From Lobosporangium transversale (Eukaryota), in assembly GCF_002105155.1 (NCBI RefSeq), contig NW_019029005.1, positions 248,001 to 312,000 of the forward strand: a stretch of DNA of 64,000 nt. Reading direction: 5' to 3'. The position numbers were made by a program, and so were the translations under genes. The stretch's first letter is position 1. Each line of letters starts with the position of its first letter. The notes below the pieces were generated by a model. The model did no database searches. It was given only the letters and a program-made list of their open reading frames with translations, and was not told the DNA's origin. Of the stretch, positions 41,475 to 64,000 are shown piece after piece.

Positions 41475-43984
41475 ATGAATTCCGCCTCTTCCTATGCGTT
41501 TCTTCCGTATCCGTCAACCTCGCAGGTGACCTCGCCAGGATTACAGCACCAGAATCAACCTCAACAGTCGCAACAACCACAACAACCACAGCAGAAACAG
41601 CAACAGCAACAGCAACAGCATCCACTTGGTCCAGTGACCACTCAACAACAACAGCAACAGCAGCAGCAACCTCAACAACCTCAGCAGTCGCAACAATCGC
41701 AACAACAACAGCAGCAGCAACAACAGCAGCAAGACTTGACACAGGATCTTTCTGCCCCTCCGACCCCGCTGTCATTGCATCCCTCATTGCAAACTTCTTC
41801 TGCAGGTGTCTCCGTTTCTGGGTCCCTGGCAGCATCGCCAGTCAGTGTTAGTAACAACACACTCAGCAACGCTTCAGGTCCCACGCTTGCAAGCCATGGA
41901 CATCCAACCATCAACACTGCTATACTCACAAGCTATGGCAATATGTTGCCATCACCGCAATCCTCTCAAGTCCCTTCTACCCCTACCACTGCTACATTGC
42001 TCCCTTCAACTCCACCACCACACACTGCGGATCTAGATTCAATTCTAGCAACCTATGCGAATCAGCCCGAGTTGCTTAAGCTTATTATTGCCTCTAAAAC
42101 AGAGGAAGACCGGCGCTGGGCTGAGGAGGCTCGATTCAAGATGATGGATCTGATCATGAGAGGCGAGAATCGAAATCTCATCACAGGCTATGAAGGATTG
42201 CTTGGTCAAGTTGTTCCAGGCCCAACTGCAGGGACACCCACATCAACCATCCCTACTGGTAACATGGGGACCAGCCCTACAACAAGTACTGTAGCTACAA
42301 GCACTATAACCACGAGCACTGCTACCATCCCTACTACTACAACTACAACTTCTAGCGCCTTAGGCCTGGCAGTTTCTGGAAAACGTTTTATGGATAATGC
42401 GTTTGATTCGCATTCTGGAGCAGCAAACTCAGGAAATGGGAGTGGAGGGAGCAATGGCTTCGCTCAAGGAGCAGATCTGGCTCTTGCCCGTAAGAGATCT
42501 GTTACTTTTGCCAGAGATGTACACCATGGTCATCTGCGCTCACAATCCATGTCCTCGGTACCATCACTCTCCAGCACAGGATCGACTATAACCGCTTCCG
42601 CTGATCAGTTTGGTACGCTATCAATGATGGGCTTGACCGGACCCAACACAGCTCTTCAGCAACAGCAACAGCATCACCCTCACCAAATACCATCGCACCC
42701 CTCACTGAATCAGTTGGCACCATTCACATTGCAGCAACCATTCCAGCAACAGCATTTTCAGCAGCACCAGAGTCAGCAATCGAACCAGATGCAGCAGGTA
42801 GCCCACCAGCAGCTGCCACCACACTTTGGCCAATACCCACAACCTTTTCCATATCATACTATGTCTCAGTTTCAACCTCAAAACGTTATTCGTAGAACAA
42901 GTTCGCTCTCACACCTCTCACACTTTGCTCAGAATCCACACGCAACAGTGACCGAACCTCGCCTAGCCGCAAGTCGACCAAGGAATGACAGTGCTTCTTC
43001 GTTCAGAACACTAGATGACAGTGGTATGTGAAGATGTTTTATTGATATTGACTTTACAAGTAGTGAGCAATTGCCCATATTCATATATATACTGGCCGCC
43101 TACTGACTGTTCTTTTTTTTTTTTTTTTTTCCCTCCTATTGATTACCAACAATCATACAAAAAAAAAAAAAAAAAAAAAAAAAGATGACGAATCGGATGA
43201 TGGTTATAACGACCATCCAGTTTTGGGTGGTATGGATGGATAGTCGACCAGGGTCATCTTTAGTATGCACAACATGATGGGTGGCAATGGGAGACGTCAC
43301 TCACCTTGGACTTTTCGGACATGGCTACTGTCTCTGGAAATGGGCCATATACATCTCAGCCACCGCAACAAGGCAGTCAGCATAACCAGCCAGGCACTTC
43401 TTCATCGATCCTTTCATCCCTTCATGGGACAGGCTCCGTAGTTTCTATGGGTATTTCCGGGCTAGGGCATGGTACCACTGTACGAAATGTGCCAACTAGC
43501 GCAGCAGGATTAAGTGGCTCAACTACGTCAGCCGCGGTATCAGCAGCAGATCAAAAGAGAAAACGTAAACGTCGAGAAATGCAGCCTGTTAACAAGATTG
43601 TCGAGTCACCTGATCCTCATATAGATCAATATCTGTGGAAGAACAATGGAAACACACTCAGAAGAAAGACTGGGTGTAAAAGTATTTATTACAAATGTTC
43701 TAACAGCGCTGGAGGATGCACGGTAAGAAGTTTGAAATAATGGATTTTTTCACGGTATCCCTATCGCTACATCGGTCGCTTGGGGTTTATCCTAACCTTG
43801 CCATTTCATTTTGCTATTTAACATTTACAATGCCCTTAGGTCAACAAAACTGTAAAGAAAAAGAAAGCGGCGGGTACATTACAAAGTAAGAGGCGAACAT
43901 CTGGAGGACTGCATCAAATTCAAACGTGCTCAGATGGCGGCCCAGGCGGCTCAGAATGCATACAGCCTCCAACGCGAGCAGTAG
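41475..43984 (+). CDS. Fungal-type WRKY-like transcription factor with poly-Q N-terminus
   Basis: DQYLWKNNGNT...YYKCSNSAGGCT|VNKTV...GEHLEDC, giving a C-x6-C ... H-x3-C zinc ligand set; introns at ~43025-43184 and ~43723-43839. Confidence 0.8.
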
Positions 43985-44795: not shown

Positions 44796-45754
44796 CTATG
44801 CCTTTGATGTTGATCCTTGGTCCTCGCCGTCATCGTCCGATTCCTCCTCGTTATCGTCATTATCGTCCTCTTCTTGAAGTTCCTCGTCGGGCTCTGTGTT
44901 GATCAACATCCAGGCCACAACCTTCTCACGTTCTTGGATCTCTGCCTCCACCATAGCGGTGTGTCCAGCTGCATTCTTTAGCTATTAAACAAAAAAAAAA
45001 AAGAGAAATATCAGGGAATAGAAAGTAAAGAGTAAGTTAAAAAAAAAAAAAAAAAAAAAAAAAGCAAATGAATGTGCATTAATATATGTGTGGACGGCGA
45101 TCCATAGGATATCTGCAAAGCTATATTAGAAATCGGTAACACCAATACCTTGTAGTCAGCCTTTCCTTTGCTGACTAAAGCCTCGACAACCTTGACATGA
45201 CCATTAGTGGCAGCCCAGTGTAAAGCAGTGTTTCCTTGTTCATTCTGAATATTGATAGCCTCCGGCGATATAATAGATATGAGATACTCGACTATATCTA
45301 CTCATTACATGAAATCGAATACTACTGTAAGCCCTCTTTGTTCACAAATGAAGAATAATGGGTCCCTCCTCCGTTTCCTTGATGTCCGCAATTTCAAGTC
45401 ACGTCCTTTTTTGGTATTTATTTGACATGGTCACTGATCATAACCTCTTTTATGGTGGTTGTTTTCTCCTCGAGTCTTCAAGCAGGAAGATAAAATTCAT
45501 CCTGCTATTATATTTCCAGTGCTTCCTCGCTTACCAATATGTCCATTAGCAGCTGCCATGTGGAGGGGGGTCTTTCCATATTCGCTTTGTTGAGACAAAA
45601 CGGTCTTGGCCTTCTCTGGTCCTAATGACTTGACCATGCCCTGAATCTCTTCCAGTTCGCCGTAACGAGCGCATTCAATCAGTTCCTCTAAACTCTCGGC
45701 ATCTTCGACTGACAGCTTTGACATGGGTTGTATTAGCTGTTGCTCTGTTGTCAT
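44796..45754 (-). CDS. Ankyrin-repeat protein, Yar1-like (Rps3 chaperone)
   Basis: LIECARYGELEE, GKTPLHMAAANGH, QGNTALHWAATNGHVKVV, KNAAGHTA and an acidic C-terminal tail; three exons. Confidence 0.8.
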
Positions 45755-47503
45755 GATTTGTGGCAATGGCTTTAATGAAAATAAATGGCTACTGAAAAAG
45801 AAAAAAAAAAAAAAAAAAAGCTTTTCTACATTTAAGACAACAATTCCACGTGATAGTTATTTGCCACCAATCAACTATCCCTTAAACCGTCAACCTGGCA
45901 AATTTGCCATTATAAATGGGCTTAAAATCCAGCAATTCATGGGCATTGCCTTGAAAATTTATTTCGATGTCGAAATAAATGACCGAAAACTAAACTGTCA
46001 TGGAGCTATCCTGGCTTCTTTATCTGTGCCAATAAAAAACTCTTGAAGGCTTTCGCATGACACTAGCATCCTCTTGGGGGCCATTGTGTTGTTTATTTAT
46101 TGACTGGTGTAATAGAAGTGATAATATTTGCCATAGTATCGACTTGAAAGGAGGGCAATCTGAGTTGATTCATTCTACCGCACCATAGAGCTTGCTCGGC
46201 AAGACTTGATTGTCACATCATTTGCTTCTTCGTCTTCTGTGTTCCCTGGGTTGGTAAACACTGCTAATAGAGTTTGTTGGGCTTGTTGAAACCAGAGGGA
46301 ACCACAGCAACATATCAACCCAAGATGATACAAATATCTCTGTTGGAGTGAGTGCTGAACTGTGTGGTTCAGATGTAGTGGACATAAACGGCGAAAGGAT
46401 GCATCGAAAGGATGTGAGCGGTTTATGAGAGCAAGGAAGAAGGGGTTGGTATACCTGTTAAAGTCCTTGGCAAGAGAGCATGAGTAGTAGTTGTGATCAA
46501 AAGTTGATTTCGGTGAGTCCGCATAACAATGGTATAGTTTCTAGACCCTATCTTCCACGTACAGCATTGCATTATTGGTGTTTTCAGACCTGGCACTAAT
46601 CATGCGAGGTATTTCTTTTTCTGAGGATTCCTTGTGTTAAACGGCCAGACAGAAAGCTTAAAAGACATACAGACACAACGGTGAAAAAAATGTATGTGAG
46701 CAAACAGTTGCTGTGTTTATTTGTTGTCTGCACATGCCTTCTTTCATCGCGGGCTTTTTTTTTTCCTTTTTTGTTCGTCAATCACTGTGTGCACGAATAA
46801 GCAGCTGAAGCATCTCCTTGGTTTCTGTACATGTGTAGACACATTTTACATCGCGGCGTCTTATTTATTTTCTGCAATTCCAAAACACAAAACACAAGCT
46901 TTTTCCATTGGTGCCTCCAGAAGAAATAAACAAACTTTATTTTGGTGGCCACTCCACAATCATGCCATGGTTATAACAATCCCTAGGAAAGGATGAAACG
47001 CGTCGGTATTAATCTCGCTTCTGTAATTCTAAATGCATATATTTTGGCGATTGGTATCAACTATCAAGTTCGCACATACACACACCAAACGACCGCCAAA
47101 AACCACCACTCTCGCTTCTGCTCTCCATCCATCCACAAGGCGCTGCGCAATATCACCATTAACAAGGCACCGTCCAGTAAGAAAGGGTGCTTAGCTAGCT
47201 TTTACTCCAAGCAATAAGCACATCACCTATCTCCGCCATTGATGCCGGAACCTGAGAGCCAACGAATATCTCTGCTTTAACGCAATAGTACTGGGGCTGT
47301 TGGAGCAAAGAACGACATCTGAACCCATTCTCTGATAAAAAAGACTTTTTTTTTCTTTAGTTTGTTACCTTTGACAAGGATATAATCATCAAGTCATATC
47401 TGTCAATGCATTTATTACCCCTGTTCAAAATTATAAATCTTCTTTTACTCATTAAATTCCTCACAAAGCACAAAGCAAGGGCCAGTGCAAACAAAAGAAA
47501 CTG

Positions 47504-47534
<31 letters not shown>

Positions 47535-47535
47535 T

Positions 47536-48030
47536 ATGGACGCTTTGGAGAACAATATGAGCACCTTCGAGAGAAATTCTCGGAGTGGGGTATGGACTCG
47601 TCCTCAAGTCATGAGGCGCATCCAGAAGGGTCTTCGAGAAGTCCACACCCTGAGCGTCCAGGACAAGGATCAGCTGGCAACAGGCCTTAGTTCTGTCTTC
47701 GATGTTGTCTGTGTGCATATGAAGCGGACCCATGCATAGGGTGCCATGATGAGGAGAATGATAGGATCGTGATATCCCAAGACTCTGATTTTTTTGCGTA
47801 CGAACGAGTCTGCTTCCTAGTGCGACCCCTTCCGCACCGTAGACGGAAGTTTGGGTTTACGACGTAGACAACGTTATCCAAGCACTAAGACTGCCATCAC
47901 ACGCGCATCTGGTGTTATTCTGTGCCATCGCAGGCAATGACTACTCAAGGAACCTCGAGACGTTAGGCCCGATTATAATCTTCGATTAATTCGAAAGGTT
48001 GCGTGGAACGAGAACTACTAATAAAATGCT
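47536..48030 (+). CDS. XPG/FEN1/EXO1-like (PIN-fold) structure-specific nuclease region (frameshifted)
   Basis: Manual translation gives AYEADPCIG (E at 47721), VISQDSDFFAY (D at 47781 and 47787) and H3TH-like LVLFCAIAGNDYSRNLETLGP (~47908-47972). These match the XPG-I EAD, S-x-D-S-D and G-x-D-Y...G-P motifs. The XPG-N part upstream (~47.2-47.5 kb) is not cleanly readable. Confidence 0.8.
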
Positions 48031-48412
48031 TCGGGCTACCTAAGGGAAGCTAGAAGGTGTTGGGAAGGAACGTAGCCTCTGAGGAAGGCCGTTTCAGTGT
48101 AGCTCTCCGCATTTTTACTTCCGGCCATCAAACGTCGGCCCAAGCGTTACCATCGAACAATGAGTTCGATAACTTCAAGCAGCGTCTACTCAATGGAAAG
48201 GATCTTCGCCATAGAATGGCTCAGCAAAGGCGAGCGCAGCGCCGCAGAACGTAAGAAAGCTCAAGCTATAGTTTTTGGCCTTGAAACCAACGTCCCCAAT
48301 ACTAATCGTTAGTCCCTTTCTTGAATAATGTAGAGGCGTACCATCATTCTATATAGCGGAAGGGTCACATAGGAACCAGTTCCGGCCCATCTTTTCTGAC
48401 AAGGCGAGCATA

Positions 48413-50706
48413 TTGAATGGGCGCACAGTTGATATCAGTAACTGCCGTCAGCACGATAGGCCGGGCCTTAAGCATCCACCACGTCGGAGAAAGGCAAAAA
48501 AGAAGCAACAGAAAAAACAAAAGCGGAAGCACAAAGGCAAGAAGCCCCACAGGGCTAAAAAAGAAGGTGCACCAATTAGGAACTTGAAGGATGCTACGAA
48601 GGTTGATCACAGCTACAGCAGTAAGCACCCTATCAAGGCCTTAACAATTGGGTCCCTTAAGGCCTCCATGGCAAGGAAAGGCGGACTGGACGCAGATGAA
48701 AGGGATAGTATTGCAAGCCAGATCCGAGGGGCAGTTGTTGTCCTCAACCGACTACGCCGCTATGCATACTGGGCGGATTGCCTTGGACATTGAGAGGATC
48801 ATGCGGTTACCAGGGGCAGCAAAGTCGAGGAAAAAGGCACTGGACGAGGTCTTGGATAGCAATGATTATTCCTTCCGTCTCGCCACCCTTCTTTTGAGTG
48901 GTCAAGGTGGCCCCAATTCAGCTTACGCGAGGGCAAAAAAACAAGGAAAGGCGGTAGAAACGCCCACATCACCTCGCTTATGAACATTTCAAGGCCACCA
49001 CTGAACTTTCCCCAATAAAGGAATAGACATCACATTGGGGGACGTCCAAGGCTTTGATCCCAAAAAGATCACATTTCCAAGAGCGTCAGACTTACTAATG
49101 GGCCAAGTACAGACATCATTAAGGCAGCACTACAGGAACGCAATGGTATAGCTTGTGTAGGGTATTTTCATGCATATTCTGCAATCAAATGCTCTTTATT
49201 CACACCTTTTTTTTTTTTTTTTTTTTTTTTCTTAGTTTGATGTCGAGAAAACAAACGAAGATATGAGCGACATTGAGTTTTTTTTGCGGGAGAACAAAAA
49301 AGTGAAAAAATACTCAGACTTTCCTACGCCCCCTGGTCACCCGGGTATGTGTATCTGTCTGAACACGCCCTAGTTGACATCCTCTGGGCGAACGAAGATA
49401 CCAAGCAGCTGCTGGAGCGTATTCTGCCTCTCAATAATCTTCCAAGACTGCAATGTATGAGTGTGTACAGGGAACAAAAGGGGTTTTGATACAGGCTCTC
49501 TTTTGTGACATTGGAGGTGATCGCATGGTTCGTGGATATCAAGACAAAGTATCCCTGCAGTCACAGGACAAAGATCTAACTCGGTTCAAACTCAAAGGAA
49601 CGATTTCTACCAACGGTCTAGTTCTGAATCTACTTGCCTATGACACAACCCAGACGAAGAGACAGCAGCAGTCTGACGTAGATGAAGAAGCCCCAGCCAA
49701 GAACTGGAGCTTTCTCAGGGATTTCTCAACACGACGTGTTCAAAGGCGGCCGGTGAAGACCTAACAGATGAAGACTACGCAAACATAAACTGGAAGAGGA
49801 GCTCCAAGCTGCTTGAAAACGTTGAGCTCACATTCAACAAACCAGGGCGATGCCCATCCGCAAACACCACAACTATCGTCGGATGTGATCCTGGTATTGT
49901 TAACGCCCTTACGTTTTCCTCGCTGGACCTCACAACCCTAACTTGCGGCAAACGGTAAAGGTGAGAAGCAGGTTCTTGTACCTCCCTGTCCTCCGCTTCA
50001 ATCACCTGTTGAACAAAAGGAAGCGTGAAAAAGGAATGATTGAGGTTGAGAGCGCCATCCCTGTGTTTGGAAGGGATACGTATAATGAGTACTTTCAATG
50101 GATGAACGAGGAGTCTCAGACACAGACAGGATCAACGAATTTGGATGTGCTTCAAGAGTTCTACGAGTCCAGATGGCACCTGAAAAAAAAATGGGACCTA
50201 CGAAAGGCTCAACGAGCTACGTTCGACTACGCGGTACAGCGAGTGTTGAAGATGCTTGGGGATAAAGGAGTACTTGTCGTCGGCCTAGGGTCCTTTGAAA
50301 GTAGTAAAGGAGTTCCCAGCAAGCACACTGCTATAACGAGACATCTTGTCACACAGGTATGGCTTTTTTTAAAAAAGTAAAGAAAGCTGGAAAGCCATAA
50401 ACCCTTGCTAATAAACGACTGCCATTTGAAACGCTTAGGTCAAAGCACGAGGACACTTCGCTGTAGGAGCGCACGAATTTTACACCAGCGCCCGCTGTCC
50501 CCGACCCCTCTGCGATAGCTTTTTAGAGACGGTGTACCCTCGCTCTAAATATTGCGGACATGTAAGGTATTCTTCGACCGTGACGCAGTAGGGGCGGAAA
50601 ACATCGCAAGAATCGGTCTTGCTCAAATTGAGAGACAAGAGAGCCTGCAAAGTACAAGCCCACGGAAGAGTCGCCTGCTCCGGCTGCAAAGCGCGCACGA
50701 CGCTAG
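48413..50706 (+). CDS. Fanzor (eukaryotic TnpB-family) RNA-guided endonuclease region, intron-containing, frameshifted
   Basis: GTISTNGLVL (WED-like); RuvC-I TIVGCDPG (D 49887); VVGLGSF; RuvC-II AHEFYTSARC (E 50475); Zn finger C-x4-C...C-x2-C; RuvC-III FDRDAVGAENIARIG (D 50582); C-terminal RPAKYKP...PAAKRARR*. Introns at ~49146-49236 and 50357-50438. Confidence 0.88.
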
Positions 50707-51125
50707 ACACAAGTATTTGGGTGCCGGCACACCCACAAAAAATTTGTAAGTTCTGTTTATTTTCGTCTCCTGTATCCATCCTCTCTAATCTTTTGCCCCT
50801 GAATTTCTGGACTAACTTTAAAAACCGTACAGATCAAACAGATAATGCCATCTGGATTCTACACAAGAAACAATACGCTCATAAACTAAAGTAGTGATAG
50901 GCCAATGCCTCGAGGGCCGTCTTGCCAAAGCCAGACTGATATTCACGGCGGAAGAACACAGTTGAGCTTCTGATCCGCCCGTTAGTTTGTTGCTGGTATC
51001 CATGTCTAGTATTTTGGGTGAGGAACTCCAGGATAGAACTATTCAATTATTTATTTTGTATCCTCAACCCTGAGCGAGTTCAAAATCTGAATATTGGAAA
51101 AGATAATCGCTCAAACCAGGAGTGA
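50707..51125 (+). ncRNA. Candidate Fanzor omega-RNA scaffold / structured element end
   Basis: Several stem-loops directly 3' of the Fanzor stop codon (50718-50735, 50945-50982, multi-branch 51025-51123). The position fits known TnpB/Fanzor loci. Inferred only. Confidence 0.4.
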
Positions 51126-51956: not shown

Positions 51957-52667
51957 ATGATATTCATCAAATGAAGGCCAATCCTCTCAAGCACAGCAAG
52001 TCAATTCAGGTCTGGCGGTAACAACATAACATCTACATCTCCAAACAGCAGCTATCATTCAATAACAAAAGGAGAAGAGAACACAGAAGAAAAACAGAAG
52101 TAGGAGTACCGCCATCCTCGACACCCGAACCCATTGATAATGTTTCAGAATCCTTTGCAACTCTCTCGGTCAATCCAGCGTCTGAATTATCAGATATGAA
52201 CACAATCGATAAAAGTAATACAAATGAGGTGTGAGCACACAAAGAATGCCTCTCAGTCCGTGAAGATAGAGGAAGATACTAAGCCCTGAGGAAGCTTGCT
52301 GAGGGCCAAGGGTCTCAAGAGCACACATCGCCAGGTTTTTTACGTTATATTAATTGCCCCGTCGACTCCGTATCCAAACGAAGTCAAAAACATTCGATCT
52401 TGATCGATACTGCCCGCATGCTAACGCAGATTCCTCAAGTGGGTATGTTTTTTTTTTTTTTTTTTTTTTTTTTTTGCATTTTAACTTTGATACATTTTTT
52501 GCTCAATAAATGTAACCATGTGTTTCTTCTAGGGAGTTTTACGTGCAGACATGACACTTCGATGTGGTGTGCACTACTGGGGTTTCGATCTAGTCAAGAA
52601 CGGACAGTGTATCGCGCACCCTGACGAAACTCTAAATGCCTGTCCTGTCTCTGACTTGGAGTGGTAG
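51957..52667 (+). CDS. Small Rieske [2Fe-2S]-domain protein with low-complexity N-terminus (frameshifted; intron ~52443-52532)
   Basis: Manual translation DRYCPHANAD...|GVLRADMTLRCGVHYWGFDLVKNGQC fits the Rieske C-x-H (52411) ... C-x-x-H (52563-52574)-x-W-x-F-D-L-x-x-x-G pattern. The start is uncertain. Confidence 0.72.
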
Positions 52668-54483: not shown

Positions 54484-55897
54484 ATGCTTGCTGCTGCAAA
54501 GGTTGCAGCCATCCGGAAATAACTGCGCGCACGCCAGTCTCATCCTTAAATCGTACAGACTGGTCTTGCTACTCTTTCCACAAGTGGTATGGAAGTGTGA
54601 GCGTCGAGGAAGGCATGGATACATATGGCTACGCAGCTTATAGAGCTAATAACTGACGCTTGTGAGATGTTGCTTATTTGTCACTATAGAGACATGGAAG
54701 CCTGGAAAAACACTGTGTGGATATAAAGTGCTCGAGGTATGGTTGACATGTCTAATTAAACCCGATGCTGTATCATGCCATCCCATCAATATGCGCATTA
54801 TACAGAAATACTGGAAATTTGACCTATTTTGTTAATCGGAGATAGACTCGACACATTAAGGAGCTGGAACTCGACGCTATTCGGCTAAGGCATGAGAAAA
54901 CAGGAGCAGAGCATCTTCATATCTCCCGAGATGATTCCAAAACGTCTTTGGCATCGGATTTGCCACGCCTCCAGAAAATAGCACGGGTGTTCCCCATATT
55001 CTCGAACATACGACACTCTGTGGCAGTCGATCTTTTCCAGTGAGAGACCCGTTCTTCAAGATGTTGAATCGTAGCATGGCTACGTTTATGAATGCTTTCA
55101 CAGGTTTGTTTGTAGTTCATTTCAATGATTGTCATTAATATTGATTGGGCTTGAATCGACGTGCTTACGCACAATATATTCAAATATCGATTGACTAGCA
55201 AGTGATTACACTTTGTATCCGTTTTCAACAACTAATCCCATTGACTATAAGAACTTGAGGGACGTTTACATGGACGCTGCATTCTTTCCGCATCTCAGGG
55301 AGCTGGATTTCAAGCAAGAAGGATGGAGGCTAGAACATGAAGACCCCAATGGTACTTTTGTTTTGTCTATTATTTAAAGATTGGATATTGTCGGTGTCAA
55401 AAGTTGACTTTGGATAATAACCGTAAAATTTGTCTCAATGGGCTGGTTGATTCTAGACAAGAGTTCCCGATTGTTTTCAAAGGGATCGTGTATAATGAGA
55501 TGAAGGGACAGATGGCAGATTCAGGATATTTATTTTGTCAAAGATGCAGCAGTTCATGTTCCTGGAACGACTTATGCTAATAACAGTGGAGGGGACCCTG
55601 CTTATATCACGGATTGACACACGAAGAACTTGTTCGATTCCACAAAACTCACTATCATCCAAGTAACGCTAAATTCTACAGTTATGGCAATTTTCGTTTG
55701 GAGGATACGCTTGAGGCTATCAATTCAAAGCTACATGAATTTTCTCCAATCACGCCTCCAGTCGTCGATAAAGTCGTCAAGCCTTTCGAGAGCCCTCGGC
55801 GAATCAATCTAACCTGCCCTGTCGATCCTAGTACGCAAATATTCGAAGAAGTATATGGGATAGAGTGTTGCATAACCTTTCGAATATTGATCTGACT

Positions 55898-61289: not shown

Positions 61290-64000
61290 CTCAAAATCAT
61301 TCAAAGCATTACTTAGGATCACTATCGTATCCCAAAACCACGAGGCTCTTGCCCAATTCTTCATTTTTCATCATTACCTACTAGTTTCCAGAGATCACTA
61401 GTAGATGCTCTACGACAAAATCGAACTGGATCTAAACTATTTAATACGGAAGACATCAACATCGAGTGACAGATTAAGGAGTAGAGATGCGGACCGGTGA
61501 AGTGGACCAGATGAGGCTTCCGCACTCAGCGGCCCATGACCTGAGGGTCCTTGCTCAAAAAAAAAAAAAAAAAAAAAAAAAAAAGCCTTCCACACTCGGA
61601 AGAGACCCAAAGGCATCTCCAGCATGGTTCCACAATGTTCAAAATGCCCTTCATGAGTCCCTTTACACACACAACTTTATCGAAGTATGGTGTAGAGACA
61701 AAAAGAACATTCTTCAGAGACTAGACGAAGAGGAAGAGAGAGATTTAAGGGAGCTCCAACAGCTAAATGAGGCTGAAAACAATGAGAGAGCAGATGAACT
61801 ACTCACAGAAGACAATATGTTGGAGGAGCAGCCCACTGAGGATGATGAGGATGATGAAGTTGGATATATAAGTTACCTCAGTGACGTGGAAGAAGACCCC
61901 AGAGAGCCACTTGATCCCCTAAGTGTAGAACAGCGGGAGGAAAGAGAAAGAAGAGCACAGTGTTACATACAAGAGGGTATGCAGGAGTATGAAGGATACA
62001 CTGAGTCTGATCGCGAACTCCAAAAAGAATACTTGCGAGAAAATTTTGAAAAAAGAGAGCGTTTGAGAGAAAAAGAGCGCGAAGCTAACGAGAGGCATAG
62101 GCTGTGGAAAGATCCTCAAGGAAGGAAAATGTTACAATTTCGCGACCGTTTGGAAAGAGGGAAGAGGGAGCAATGGTTGCTAAGAAAAATAGAGCAAGAG
62201 AGGAAAAAAGAAGAGGCGGAGAGAAGGAGAGTGTGGCGACGTGAACAGTGGGTGCAAGCCAAGCAAGAAGCCGCACACTCGAAGGCTATCGAAAGAGCTC
62301 GCCGTCAAGAACGCCTACGGTTACAGGCTAGGTTTCAAAGGCTCGATGAACAAGGAAGAAGAGAACAGCGACGACGAGCGGCTTTCAACCGAGCAAGACG
62401 TAGAGCACAAGAGCGAAACAAGATACGTGGACGCCATGAACTCGATGAACAAGCTCTCGATAGGAGGCTCAGGACGAAAGCGCAAGAAGAGATGGACTCC
62501 TCAAGAACAAGGAATAATAAAATCCCAGAGGGTCATCATCGGTGGTTTGGCTCCTCTGAGTGCCTAGGTGTAGAGATCCCACAGGTTGACATGGACAATA
62601 TACTGCGTCAAAGAGAGAAACTATCAACGATGAGTCAGCTAACACTTTACTCCGATGGGTCCCTTGAAGAGGCAGGAAGAAGGGCGGCGCGGATGGCTTT
62701 CGGGTGGTGGCTCAGATAGGCCCAGAAAGCTTCTCAAATGTAGTTTCAGGTAGAGTCGATGGGTATGCTTCATCCACCAAGGCAGAGCTAGTAGGACTGT
62801 ACGCAGCCATTCTAGTCAGTCCCCGTAACGTTCCAACGACTGTCTACATAGACAACATGGCGGTAGTGGTTCAGTTCAAGGACCTTGCTCAAAAGCGAGA
62901 AGCAAGCACTGAACGGCAGCGATTGCGATCCAAGTACGCAGTGTGGTGGGCAGCCATTTCGAGAGCGCTCTTTAAGCAGGGCGGGAAGGTAACTGTGAAA
63001 TGGGTCAAGGGCCATGCTGGGAATAGAGGCAATATAAGGGCAGACCAAGCCGCCAAAGATGCTCATTTTAGCGAAATGTGGACAATCAAAGACTGGAACA
63101 CAACGATCTGCGCTGTCACGCTATTTTCGAGAACGAGGTGGTGGAGGATGATCTTAGACACCTGCTAAAACTCCAATCAGCAGTGAGAACACATTACTTG
63201 TGGGCGTCTCAGAACAGAGTCAGGAATTATATTGCAGACTGGCGAGAAGTAGAATGGAAAGCAAGCCTGCATATTCTTCACGATGGCAACACGCCTAGAG
63301 GCCTCTTCACCAGCCCAGCAGATTGTCACAAGAGAGCGCACAGAATAAAAAGGTCCATGGTATGCTTCCTACACTCACTTATATGAGGCAGTGGCGACCG
63401 GACCTGTATGAGACTGACATCTGCAGGATGTGTGAACAGGAGCAGGAGGACATAGAACACCTCTGGCGATGTCCCATGACACTGGACGAGCAATTGAAAG
63501 GTTGGAAGCAGGCCATAGAACTCATCACGAAGGATGGCAAAAGAGCATTAGTGAAGGAGAAGAAGCTCTGGGAAGACAAACAAGGGAAAACACAGGAGCC
63601 AAACCTGAATAAAGGAGGCCCTCGTTTACACCTGTAGCCGACAACGTGATTTGGGGCTCTTTGGAAGCGATGTTCAAGGGCGTCAGAGAGATTCGACATG
63701 CGAGCACTCTGTTTGGTGAGGAAGATGTGGATATGGGACGGAGGAACGAGGGTGAGATGCCCACTGGACTGTCCAAGACTTGTACCACGGTTTGGTGCCG
63801 AAGGAACTGATACAAAAATGGAAGACGATCTTCAGAACCACAGCATCGATCTCAAGGTACATTGTTTGCCGCTTTGTCAAGTCAATCGAGGAACTCGGCA
63901 GGACTGAAATCTGGAACAGACGCTGCAAAGTCACCGTCAACTGGGAAAGAGACAATGGTATCACCTCTGTGAGCAAACGCGCCAGGGGACGCAACTGTGT
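61290..64000 (+). mobile_element. Non-LTR retrotransposon-derived fragment: RNase H + C-terminal zinc finger (zf-RVT-like), no RT/APE visible; runs off the window
   Basis: RNase H motifs LYSDGSL, SSTKAELVGL, VYIDNMAV and KWVKGHAGNRGNIRADQAAK; HGMLPT...CRMCEQEQEDIEHLWRC; IWNRRC. Frameshifted, no introns; the 5' boundary is approximate. Confidence 0.8.

Follow-up and report, generated by a model that had tools for sequence, protein, structure and literature searches.

An EXO1/FEN1-type nuclease domain joined to Fanzor1 in a multi-copy element of Lobosporangium transversale, and in related fungi

A sequence-only reading of a 64,000-nucleotide stretch of the Lobosporangium transversale genome (hereafter the window) had proposed that broken open reading frames, starting at 47200, encode an XPG/FEN1-like nuclease joined to a Fanzor (TnpB-family) RNA-guided nuclease. 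The locus raises the question of whether the two halves form one protein, whether each is what it appears to be, and what a Fanzor would do with a second nuclease. When the codons were checked, the motifs cited in that reading (EAD, DSD, NDY, the K/R tract, DPG, E 50475, DRD and PAAKRARR) were all found in place on the + strand, which carries every part of the element; the start had to be moved, since homology begins at ~47536.

Structure of the gene in the window

Exon 1 (47536..48250) encodes the EXO1/FEN1-type nuclease from about the equivalent of residue 102, including EAD, DSD, NDY and the helix-turn-helix motif, as assigned by alignment to relatives, by codons (confirmed for E 47721, D 47727, D 47781, D 47787 and D 47939) and by mapping fold and residues on relatives. 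Intron 1 (48251..48333, GT-AG, 83 nt), which separates this head from the linker, is skipped by a contig from run X7, a run labelled RNA only by guess, and the resulting in-frame junction matches gene model P0202. Exon 2 (48334..49145), placed by alignment to relatives, contains the linker, the K/R-rich tract and the start of the Fanzor WED/REC region. The tract (~48480-48580) is predicted to be disordered and likely serves as a nuclear localisation signal; in the relative P0028, pLDDT falls below 50 at linker residues 388-418. Intron 2 (49146..49235, GT-AG, 90 nt, with a poly-T tract) is crossed by an X7 contig joining 49145 to ~49236-49243, and shares its codon position with a distant element, L001. 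Exon 3 (49236..50356), supported by gene models, frameshift-aware alignment and codons, carries REC/WED with a TNG motif, an acidic insert and the RuvC-I DPG (D 49887). Intron 3 (50357..50438, GT-AG, 82 nt) is joined across in gene models, partly retained in one X7 contig and again shared in position with L001. Exon 4 (50439..50706), defined by codons, alignment and PF07282 on sister models, provides the RuvC-II E 50475, the C4 zinc finger, the RuvC-III D 50582 and a basic C-terminal tail ending in PAAKRARR, followed by TAG at 50704-50706.

The gene contains 15 frameshifts, with six single-base indels of the assembly in exon 1, and no nonsense codons. Frameshifts also affect host genes, and the missing bases occur in short-read contigs, so that those of the gene are most likely assembly errors. 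The breaks noticed in the reading frames arise mostly from such errors plus the three introns. The sequence-only reading had overlooked this cause, and also that the head lacks its N-terminal third (~100 residues) in the window. Five of the seven acidic residues are present in the window head, and the MG, the first two acids and the arch K/R were not found. If this gap is real, the window copy would be Fanzor-active but head-dead.

Upstream of exon 1 lies a multi-copy 5' region (46762..47535), recognised by contig depth, with a provisional left edge and a 28-nt A run at its end (47504-47531). No coding match was found there: a Pfam search gave no match, and residues 1-105 of five relatives gave none clearly above shuffles. 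Residues 26-92 of P0029, considered as the missing N-terminus at 46987-47190, were rejected (score 45, against a maximum of 43 in 15 shuffles). One contig joins 47192 to 47555. The depth of the region reaches ~170-270 in two DNA runs, compared with 5-9 in the right flank, and since this non-coding depth equals that of the gene, truncated heads may be common in the L. transversale genome.

Searched against Pfam, the window fragments gave nothing significant for either family (best XPG_I_2, E 0.17), so the domain assignment rests on relatives. Four proteins of 998-1,186 aa align collinearly from ~47536-47700 through the RuvC region, and the frameshift-aware alignment that the sequence-only reading had recommended gave 267/580 identical columns to P0026 and 414/455 to P0001; the motifs of the window are thus no chance occurrences. 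Head and tail have similarly high depth, and among the contigs listed none spans both.

Two nuclease halves conserved in full-length relatives

Relatives were found using the C-terminal 454 aa (the Fanzor part) alone as query, the shorter matches being mostly fragments. A profile of the head, made from four of the 15 relatives that reach at least 990 aa, matched all 15 (weakest E 6e-5). The fusion is present in at least six genera, the suspected linkage of the halves being conserved across Mortierellaceae genera, and it occurs as uninterrupted 1,071-1,302-aa frames on 3.9-5.5-kb contigs. The close relative P0204, a continuous 1,071-aa frame, is identical to genomic models until those run into introns, and its continuation through the genomic intron positions argues for one spliced message. 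The proposal of a single two-nuclease protein is thus borne out in the relatives, where the family encodes one protein of ~1,000-1,200 aa. Across 16 proteins, distances between heads vary together with those between tails (Mantel rho 0.52, 0 of 2,000 permutations); the head and tail trees, mostly without resolution, disagree on P0145, P0127 and P0158.

Profile, fold and the catalytic residues of the relatives support the assignment of the head to the FEN1/EXO1 family, in keeping with the XPG/FEN1-like character first attributed to it. In an AlphaFold model of P0028 (pLDDT 81; an earlier model from a four-row alignment, pLDDT 38, was excluded), residues 2-308 matched EXO1 with Z 21.1 (rmsd 3.2, 279 aligned) and FEN1 with Z 20.5, within 1 Z unit of each other, and XRN2 with Z 15.8. 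The best profile scores came from archaeal FEN-1, and the motif letters EAD and DSD read as EXO1-like, not FEN1-like. In 19 aligned heads (median pairwise identity 27%), the seven acidic positions, which align residue by residue with the EXO1 and FEN1 motifs, were acidic in 13/13, 17/17, 18/18, 18/18, 18/19, 18/19 and 18/18 of the rows having the residue, and the arch K and arch R were each present in 16/16. With EXO1, FEN1, XPG and GEN1 the head shares the fold (Z 17-21), the N-terminal MG, seven acidic metal ligands, the arch Lys-x6-Arg and the helix-turn-helix, and T5 exonuclease belongs to the same fold family. It differs from them in having only 14-19% identity to any solved member, under Pfam cut-offs, in its contiguous N and I regions, and in residing in a mobile element, joined to an RNA-guided nuclease. 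In P0026/P0204, the closest full-length relative, one acidic site is occupied by Asn and the helix-turn-helix motif is altered. A single-sequence PDB search returned low-complexity matches only.

For the C-terminal part, read earlier as TnpB/Fanzor-type, motif, fold and published classification support Fanzor1. The Fanzor1 pattern is D-X(125,275)-[TS][TS]xx-C4 zinc finger-X(5,50)-RD (PMC3627910), and the window fits it with 171 residues from D to TS, the C4 finger, five residues and RD. Its EFYTSARC at 50475 places the glutamate six residues ahead of the first Cys of the finger, as described for the RuvC-II glutamate of Fanzor1 (PMC13565253). In the P0028 model, residues 435-1179 matched PpFz1 (Z 18.5, rmsd 4.1, 475 aligned) and SpuFz1 (Z 16.4), with SpuFz1 the top Foldseek match (E 1e-11) and also the best PDB match of the family profile. 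Overall, the likeness to Fanzor1 (SpuFz1, PpFz1, GtFz1; Bao and Jurka 2013, PMC3627910; Saito et al. 2023, PMC10432273; Xu et al. 2024, PMC11423790) covers D...TSxxC4...RD, the relocated glutamate, a WED/REC/RuvC fold over ~470 residues, and a locus present in many copies whose 3' end is conserved and whose flank varies. The differences are a domain of ~300 residues and a basic linker ahead of the Fanzor part, giving 1,000-1,500 aa instead of the 600-800 aa described (PMC10711439, in part); the failure to find terminal repeats or a target duplication; an intron within the predicted omega-RNA; and, for the TDG motif of the Fanzor1 WED domain (PMC10711439, in part), TNG in the window and most close relatives, with TDG retained in P0030 and P0157.

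The pairing of an EXO1/FEN1-type nuclease with a Fanzor is common in related fungi. The sister copy ORZ22893.1 and three of the six full-length relatives looked up are FZ1 in Saito's Supplementary Table 1 (PMC10432273), and 22 of 56 rows in three sampled parts of the published Fanzor table show the head motifs by eye. The suggestion that the architecture was undescribed holds in so far as the head domain is named in no text of the searchable Fanzor literature, and fails in so far as the proteins already stand, unannotated, in the Fanzor tables, labelled as 'hypothetical' FZ1. Elsewhere, exact-pattern scans of viral contigs found no relative, a metagenome scan gave two partial loci, both lacking the head, and the ESM Atlas held one cluster of 58 members named for the TNB domain only.

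The element and its right end

The copy in the window is one of many: the element is represented by 39 L. transversale gene models, and its family is young, dispersed and high-copy, with variable flanks. Downstream of the gene, X7 contigs and comparison with L001 define a conserved 3' non-coding end (50707..50845), the predicted omega-RNA scaffold. Within it, a hairpin at 50718-50735 precedes an A/T motif that L001 also has; an 11-nt motif common to the window and L001 was reached by 14 of 1,000 shuffles. Against Rfam the 3' region gave one chance-level match only, and its folding in the window was not stronger than that of shuffles. The right end is sharp: four X7 contigs agree to ~50845 and then enter differing flanks, and depth is down to ~9 by 50947. 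From this divergence, the first flanking bases (50846..50862) are the predicted guide of the window copy, a role assigned by analogy with PMC10432273.

A fourth intron (50746..50832, 87 nt), of spliceosomal type (GTAAGT, CTAAC branch, CAG), follows the stop codon and falls within the predicted omega-RNA. One X7 contig breaks off exactly after 50745 and resumes with the letters of 50833-50845, while three others are unspliced to 50834-50837. A spliceosomal intron within the predicted guide-RNA region is new here. In IStrons, a TnpB element carries a group I intron (10.1101/2023.11.20.567912, in part), whereas the intron of the fungal element is short, spliceosomal and beyond the stop codon, with a possible effect on the guide RNA.

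No transposase or terminal inverted repeat was seen in ~4.1 kb, neither target duplications, nor terminal repeats, nor any similarity of left and right ends exceeded shuffles (best 17 of 300), and Pfam on the flanking frames yielded nothing useful. Retroposition was rejected as the mode of spread, no intron skip being listed for the DNA runs; introns kept in DNA copies point to DNA-based spread.

What the joined nuclease may do

With a probability of about one half, we favour a reading in which the spliced EXO1/FEN1-Fanzor1 protein likely makes an RNA-guided cut at the element-free site, after which it likely resects the 5' strands and repair copies the element back. Transcription reading through the right end would yield an omega-RNA whose last bases derive from the flank; contigs of run X7, presumed to be RNA, do read into different flanks. 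RuvC would cut the empty site, possibly leaving 5' overhangs as SpuFz1 does (PMC10432273, in part), and the tethered head would degrade the 5' ends into 3' tails, favouring repair by homologous copying over end joining, by which the target would be destroyed. New sites would first be reached with a transposase supplied from elsewhere, our default assumption. A role of the fusion in resection and homing is thus what we infer as likely. According to a 2026 review, homing is less adaptive in eukaryotes because they rely on end joining (PMC13565253). Engineered Cas/IscB fusions with T5 exonuclease, TREX2 or SbcB likewise tether an RNA-guided cutter to an end-processing nuclease, but are laboratory constructs, whereas the fungal fusion is natural, conserved and spliced; the Cas-exonuclease fusions are reported mainly to give higher indels and longer deletions, which would counter homing (PMC11471210, in part). 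Moreover, with no transposase, terminal inverted repeat or target duplication found, there is no sign of the excision that homing would have to repair.

It is possible, at clearly lower odds, that the head acts late, as a flap endonuclease that removes 5' flaps, or strands displaced during copying or joining of the element, and that the protein inserts at new sites without a transposase. The tie between the FEN1 and EXO1 folds, the archaeal FEN-1 profile scores, the absent transposase and terminal repeat and the DNA-based spread agree with this; the EXO1-like motif letters do not, the left end of the element is not fixed, and Fanzor elements lacking a transposase are known, with help in trans presumed (PMC10432273, in part). 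We hold it doubtful that the element is a transposase-free selfish one whose fusion alone would cut, resect and drive copying into new sites, with splicing of the right-end intron switching the scaffold between two folds.

Somewhat more doubtful is a role on RNA, in trimming the omega-RNA from a long transcript or clearing RNA:DNA hybrids after cleavage: the predicted scaffold sits at the end of a spliced message and needs 5' trimming, XRN2 is among the fold matches, and FEN-family enzymes can degrade RNA in hybrids. Against it, Fanzor1 proteins lacking such a head make omega-RNA (PMC10432273, in part), and the DNA-binding helix-turn-helix and arch residues are kept. We give marginally less credence to a head that makes cuts destructive, widening breaks into deletions so as to destroy competing elements or viruses; the fusion might then be a tool that the host has partly domesticated. 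The raised indel rates of the engineered fusions (PMC11471210, in part) and the P0026 family, near-identical in two strains and found on six Logan contigs, would suit this, but the gene belongs to a young, dispersed, high-copy family with variable flanks, as expected for a selfish element. That a host EXO1/FEN1 fragment adjoins the Fanzor by chance, or that gene callers merged two genes, as the broken window frames and the L. transversale models mostly covering the 3' half only might suggest, is highly improbable and already largely refuted by the similar depth of head and tail, the uninterrupted frames and the spread of the fusion over genera.

Under the favoured reading of cutting followed by resection and copying, the fusion would be a natural RNA-guided nuclease carrying its own end-processing enzyme, a design that genome engineers build by hand, and it bears on what Fanzors gain from cutting in eukaryotes, given that homing should there be defeated by end joining. 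This is a large subfamily, and for a sizeable share of the catalogued Fanzor1 proteins the first domain may have gone unread; intact members of 1,070-1,190 aa exist for study.

Frame and introns of the window copy

The motif positions on which the sequence-only reading based an XPG/FEN1-like nuclease joined to a Fanzor (candidate gene, window ~47536-50706, plus strand) were all confirmed on that strand by a codon check. As it had also stated, the locus holds only fragments: only short open frames occur, and neither nuclease family was matched significantly in Pfam by any of them. Frameshift-aware alignment, the check it had proposed, yielded with introns removed a continuous frame over ~2.9 kb with no in-frame stop after 15 single-base indels, a sixteenth event being an error in the reference model and left out of this count. 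One-base differences were seen in short-read contigs at 12 or more places, and of the 12 listed, ten lie at the gene's frameshifts and two in introns; these contigs mix element copies, so that the intactness of the window copy is unproven. Two host genes, named from their motifs, are broken in the same way: a Myb-like gene (~24945, minus strand) has a single-base frameshift and a presequence-protease-like gene (54938-55620, plus strand) at least three. Because host genes share this kind of break, and given the short-read differences, assembly error is the likely cause of the frameshifts in the fusion gene, and broken frames in this unpolished Lobosporangium transversale assembly are therefore not to be taken as decay.

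Residues 1 to ~100 of the full-length relatives have no counterpart in the window, nor do the first 39 of the sister gene model P0022, and by sequence comparison the missing 5' part appears to be a real gap; a 28-nt A run adjoins the start of the frame. The window copy is error-ridden and 5'-incomplete. Runs of A or T of 24-28 nt are frequent in introns and intergenic DNA of the window (for example 45039-45066, 49207-49230 and 52448-52475).

Three GT-AG introns interrupt the frame, the first between the N-terminal nuclease (head) and the linker and the others in the C-terminal Fanzor1 (tail). X7, a sequencing run whose RNA label is a guess, has contigs that pass over introns 1 and 2, and introns 2 and 3 occupy identical codon positions in L001, a distant related element with 40% identity.

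Head and tail across relatives

Queries with the C-terminal 454 residues alone returned 15 proteins of at least 990 aa, and all 15 matched a head profile, itself built from four of them. Named fusion proteins come from Mortierella, Linnemannia, Entomortierella, Actinomortierella and Benniella, and a Podila protein is present in the published Fanzor table; four relatives are uninterrupted frames on 4.0-5.5-kb contigs. The claim of one two-nuclease protein held across Mortierellaceae genera, and the fusion architecture as such is close to certain. The 1,071-aa relative P0204, from six Logan contigs, is identical over 979 residues to the genomic model P0026 and continues into the last exon, staying in frame where P0026 reads into intron 3 and the model P0203 into intron 1; from this comparison we infer that head and tail would be carried on one spliced message. 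P0026/P0204, outside the window, is near-identical in two Mortierella strains and apparently transcribed, has an eight-residue deletion in RuvC, and is possibly a domesticated or decaying copy.

The first 270 positions of the family profile matched FEN1, EXO1, XPG, Rad2 and GEN1 (best E 4e-13), and its C-terminal end matched TnpB/Fanzor. Both folds were recovered in an AlphaFold model of the relative P0028, rather than of the window's product (pLDDT 81, pTM 0.67, 63-row alignment): residues 2-308 resemble EXO1 (Z 21.1) and FEN1 (Z 20.5) at rmsd ~3.2, and residues 435-1179 have a Fanzor1 fold (PpFz1 Z 18.5, SpuFz1 Z 16.4). Among 19 aligned heads, in which the P0114 row is misaligned in its second half, almost no variation is seen at seven acidic positions or at the Lys and Arg of the arch. 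Since median identity among heads is only 27%, this conservation argues for a predicted active nuclease. In 16 proteins picked for having both parts, head and tail distances co-vary (rho 0.52, 0/2,000 permutations), with trees that are poorly resolved and conflict on three long branches.

Ends of the element and its predicted guide

Summed contig depth in two DNA runs, a sign of repetition rather than a copy number, was 60-690 over ~46762-50850 and 4-9 past 50947. Four X7 contigs share a right end up to ~50845 and then differ in their flanks; the left end is not fixed, because the depth bin left of 46762 is also elevated. Directly left of the element lies a hairpin-prone stretch (46660-46770) of elevated depth, which may be a small repeat of its own or the element's true left end. 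A transposase frame, terminal repeats and target duplications were looked for at the element in the window and not found. Low-depth DNA contigs skip 47192-47555, 48908-49480, 49747-50717 and 50669-50729, and internally deleted copies exist, one with its 3' end kept. Elsewhere in the window, an RNase H domain (PF00075, E 8e-11) lies in the second of two overlapping frames at 61478-63168, which are probably part of a retroelement, and a frame at 43264-43740 has a weak WRKY-domain match below cut-off (E 0.002).

Positions 50746-50832, 3' of the stop codon and inside the predicted omega-RNA (guide RNA) region, read as a spliceosomal-type intron, spliced exactly in one X7 contig and kept in three. 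Splicing creates a 5-bp hairpin immediately before the flank; unspliced, the start of the intron could instead pair with that right end in a 7-bp stem, and this predicted fold, the one of the two compared with shuffles, is no stronger than they are. Two alternative terminal stems set by splice state are a lead. In L001, a hairpin and an 11-nt A/T motif shared with the window element directly follow the stop codon (2375-2420).

Possible role and extent of the family

We put at roughly one in two the reading in which the guide would direct the Fanzor cut at the empty, element-free site, the head would resect 5' strands there, and homologous repair would copy the element back. It is supported indirectly by the conserved catalytic residues of the head, by the 5' overhangs that SpuFz1 leaves (PMC10432273) and by the problem, stated in PMC13565253, that homing in eukaryotes is weakened by end joining. 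Three points count against it: the element shows no excision machinery, the nearest full-length relative (P0026/P0204) has Asn at one acidic head site, and engineered exonuclease fusions are reported to increase mostly deletions (PMC11471210). Flap processing by the head while the element is copied is unlikely; RNA trimming is improbable, and destructive cutting a shade more so. Chance adjacency of head and tail is very improbable.

The sections consulted of PMC3627910, PMC10432273, PMC10711439, PMC10530073, PMC13565253, PMC11423790, PMC5499597, PMC10691335 and PMC11471210 name no FEN1/XPG domain on a Fanzor. Searches outside subscription journals, Repbase and bioRxiv supplements found no literature pairing Fanzor with XPG or with Mortierell-, titles on Fanzor and PIN gave none on this fusion, and no description appeared among the broader Fanzor matches listed. 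Some of the proteins were already tabulated: in the Saito table (PMC10432273), a sister copy and three of six queried full-length relatives are FZ1 'hypothetical protein'. Head motifs occur in the first 400 residues of 22 of 56 rows of its Table 1, one from Tilletiopsis, by an unscored count by eye in three of 158 table parts picked near known members.

With the longest C-terminal frame as query, 24 of the 25 proteins returned were L. transversale gene models (57-100% identity); P0006, with the same frame quirks, appears to be the model of the window locus. All three RuvC motifs are kept, by a strict pattern, in 18 of the 39 L. transversale models, cluster members included and two perhaps being one locus. 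In this genome the family is young, and in relatives it is intact; it forms a widespread and apparently unnamed subfamily of Fanzor1 that carries an EXO1/FEN1-type nuclease of its own.
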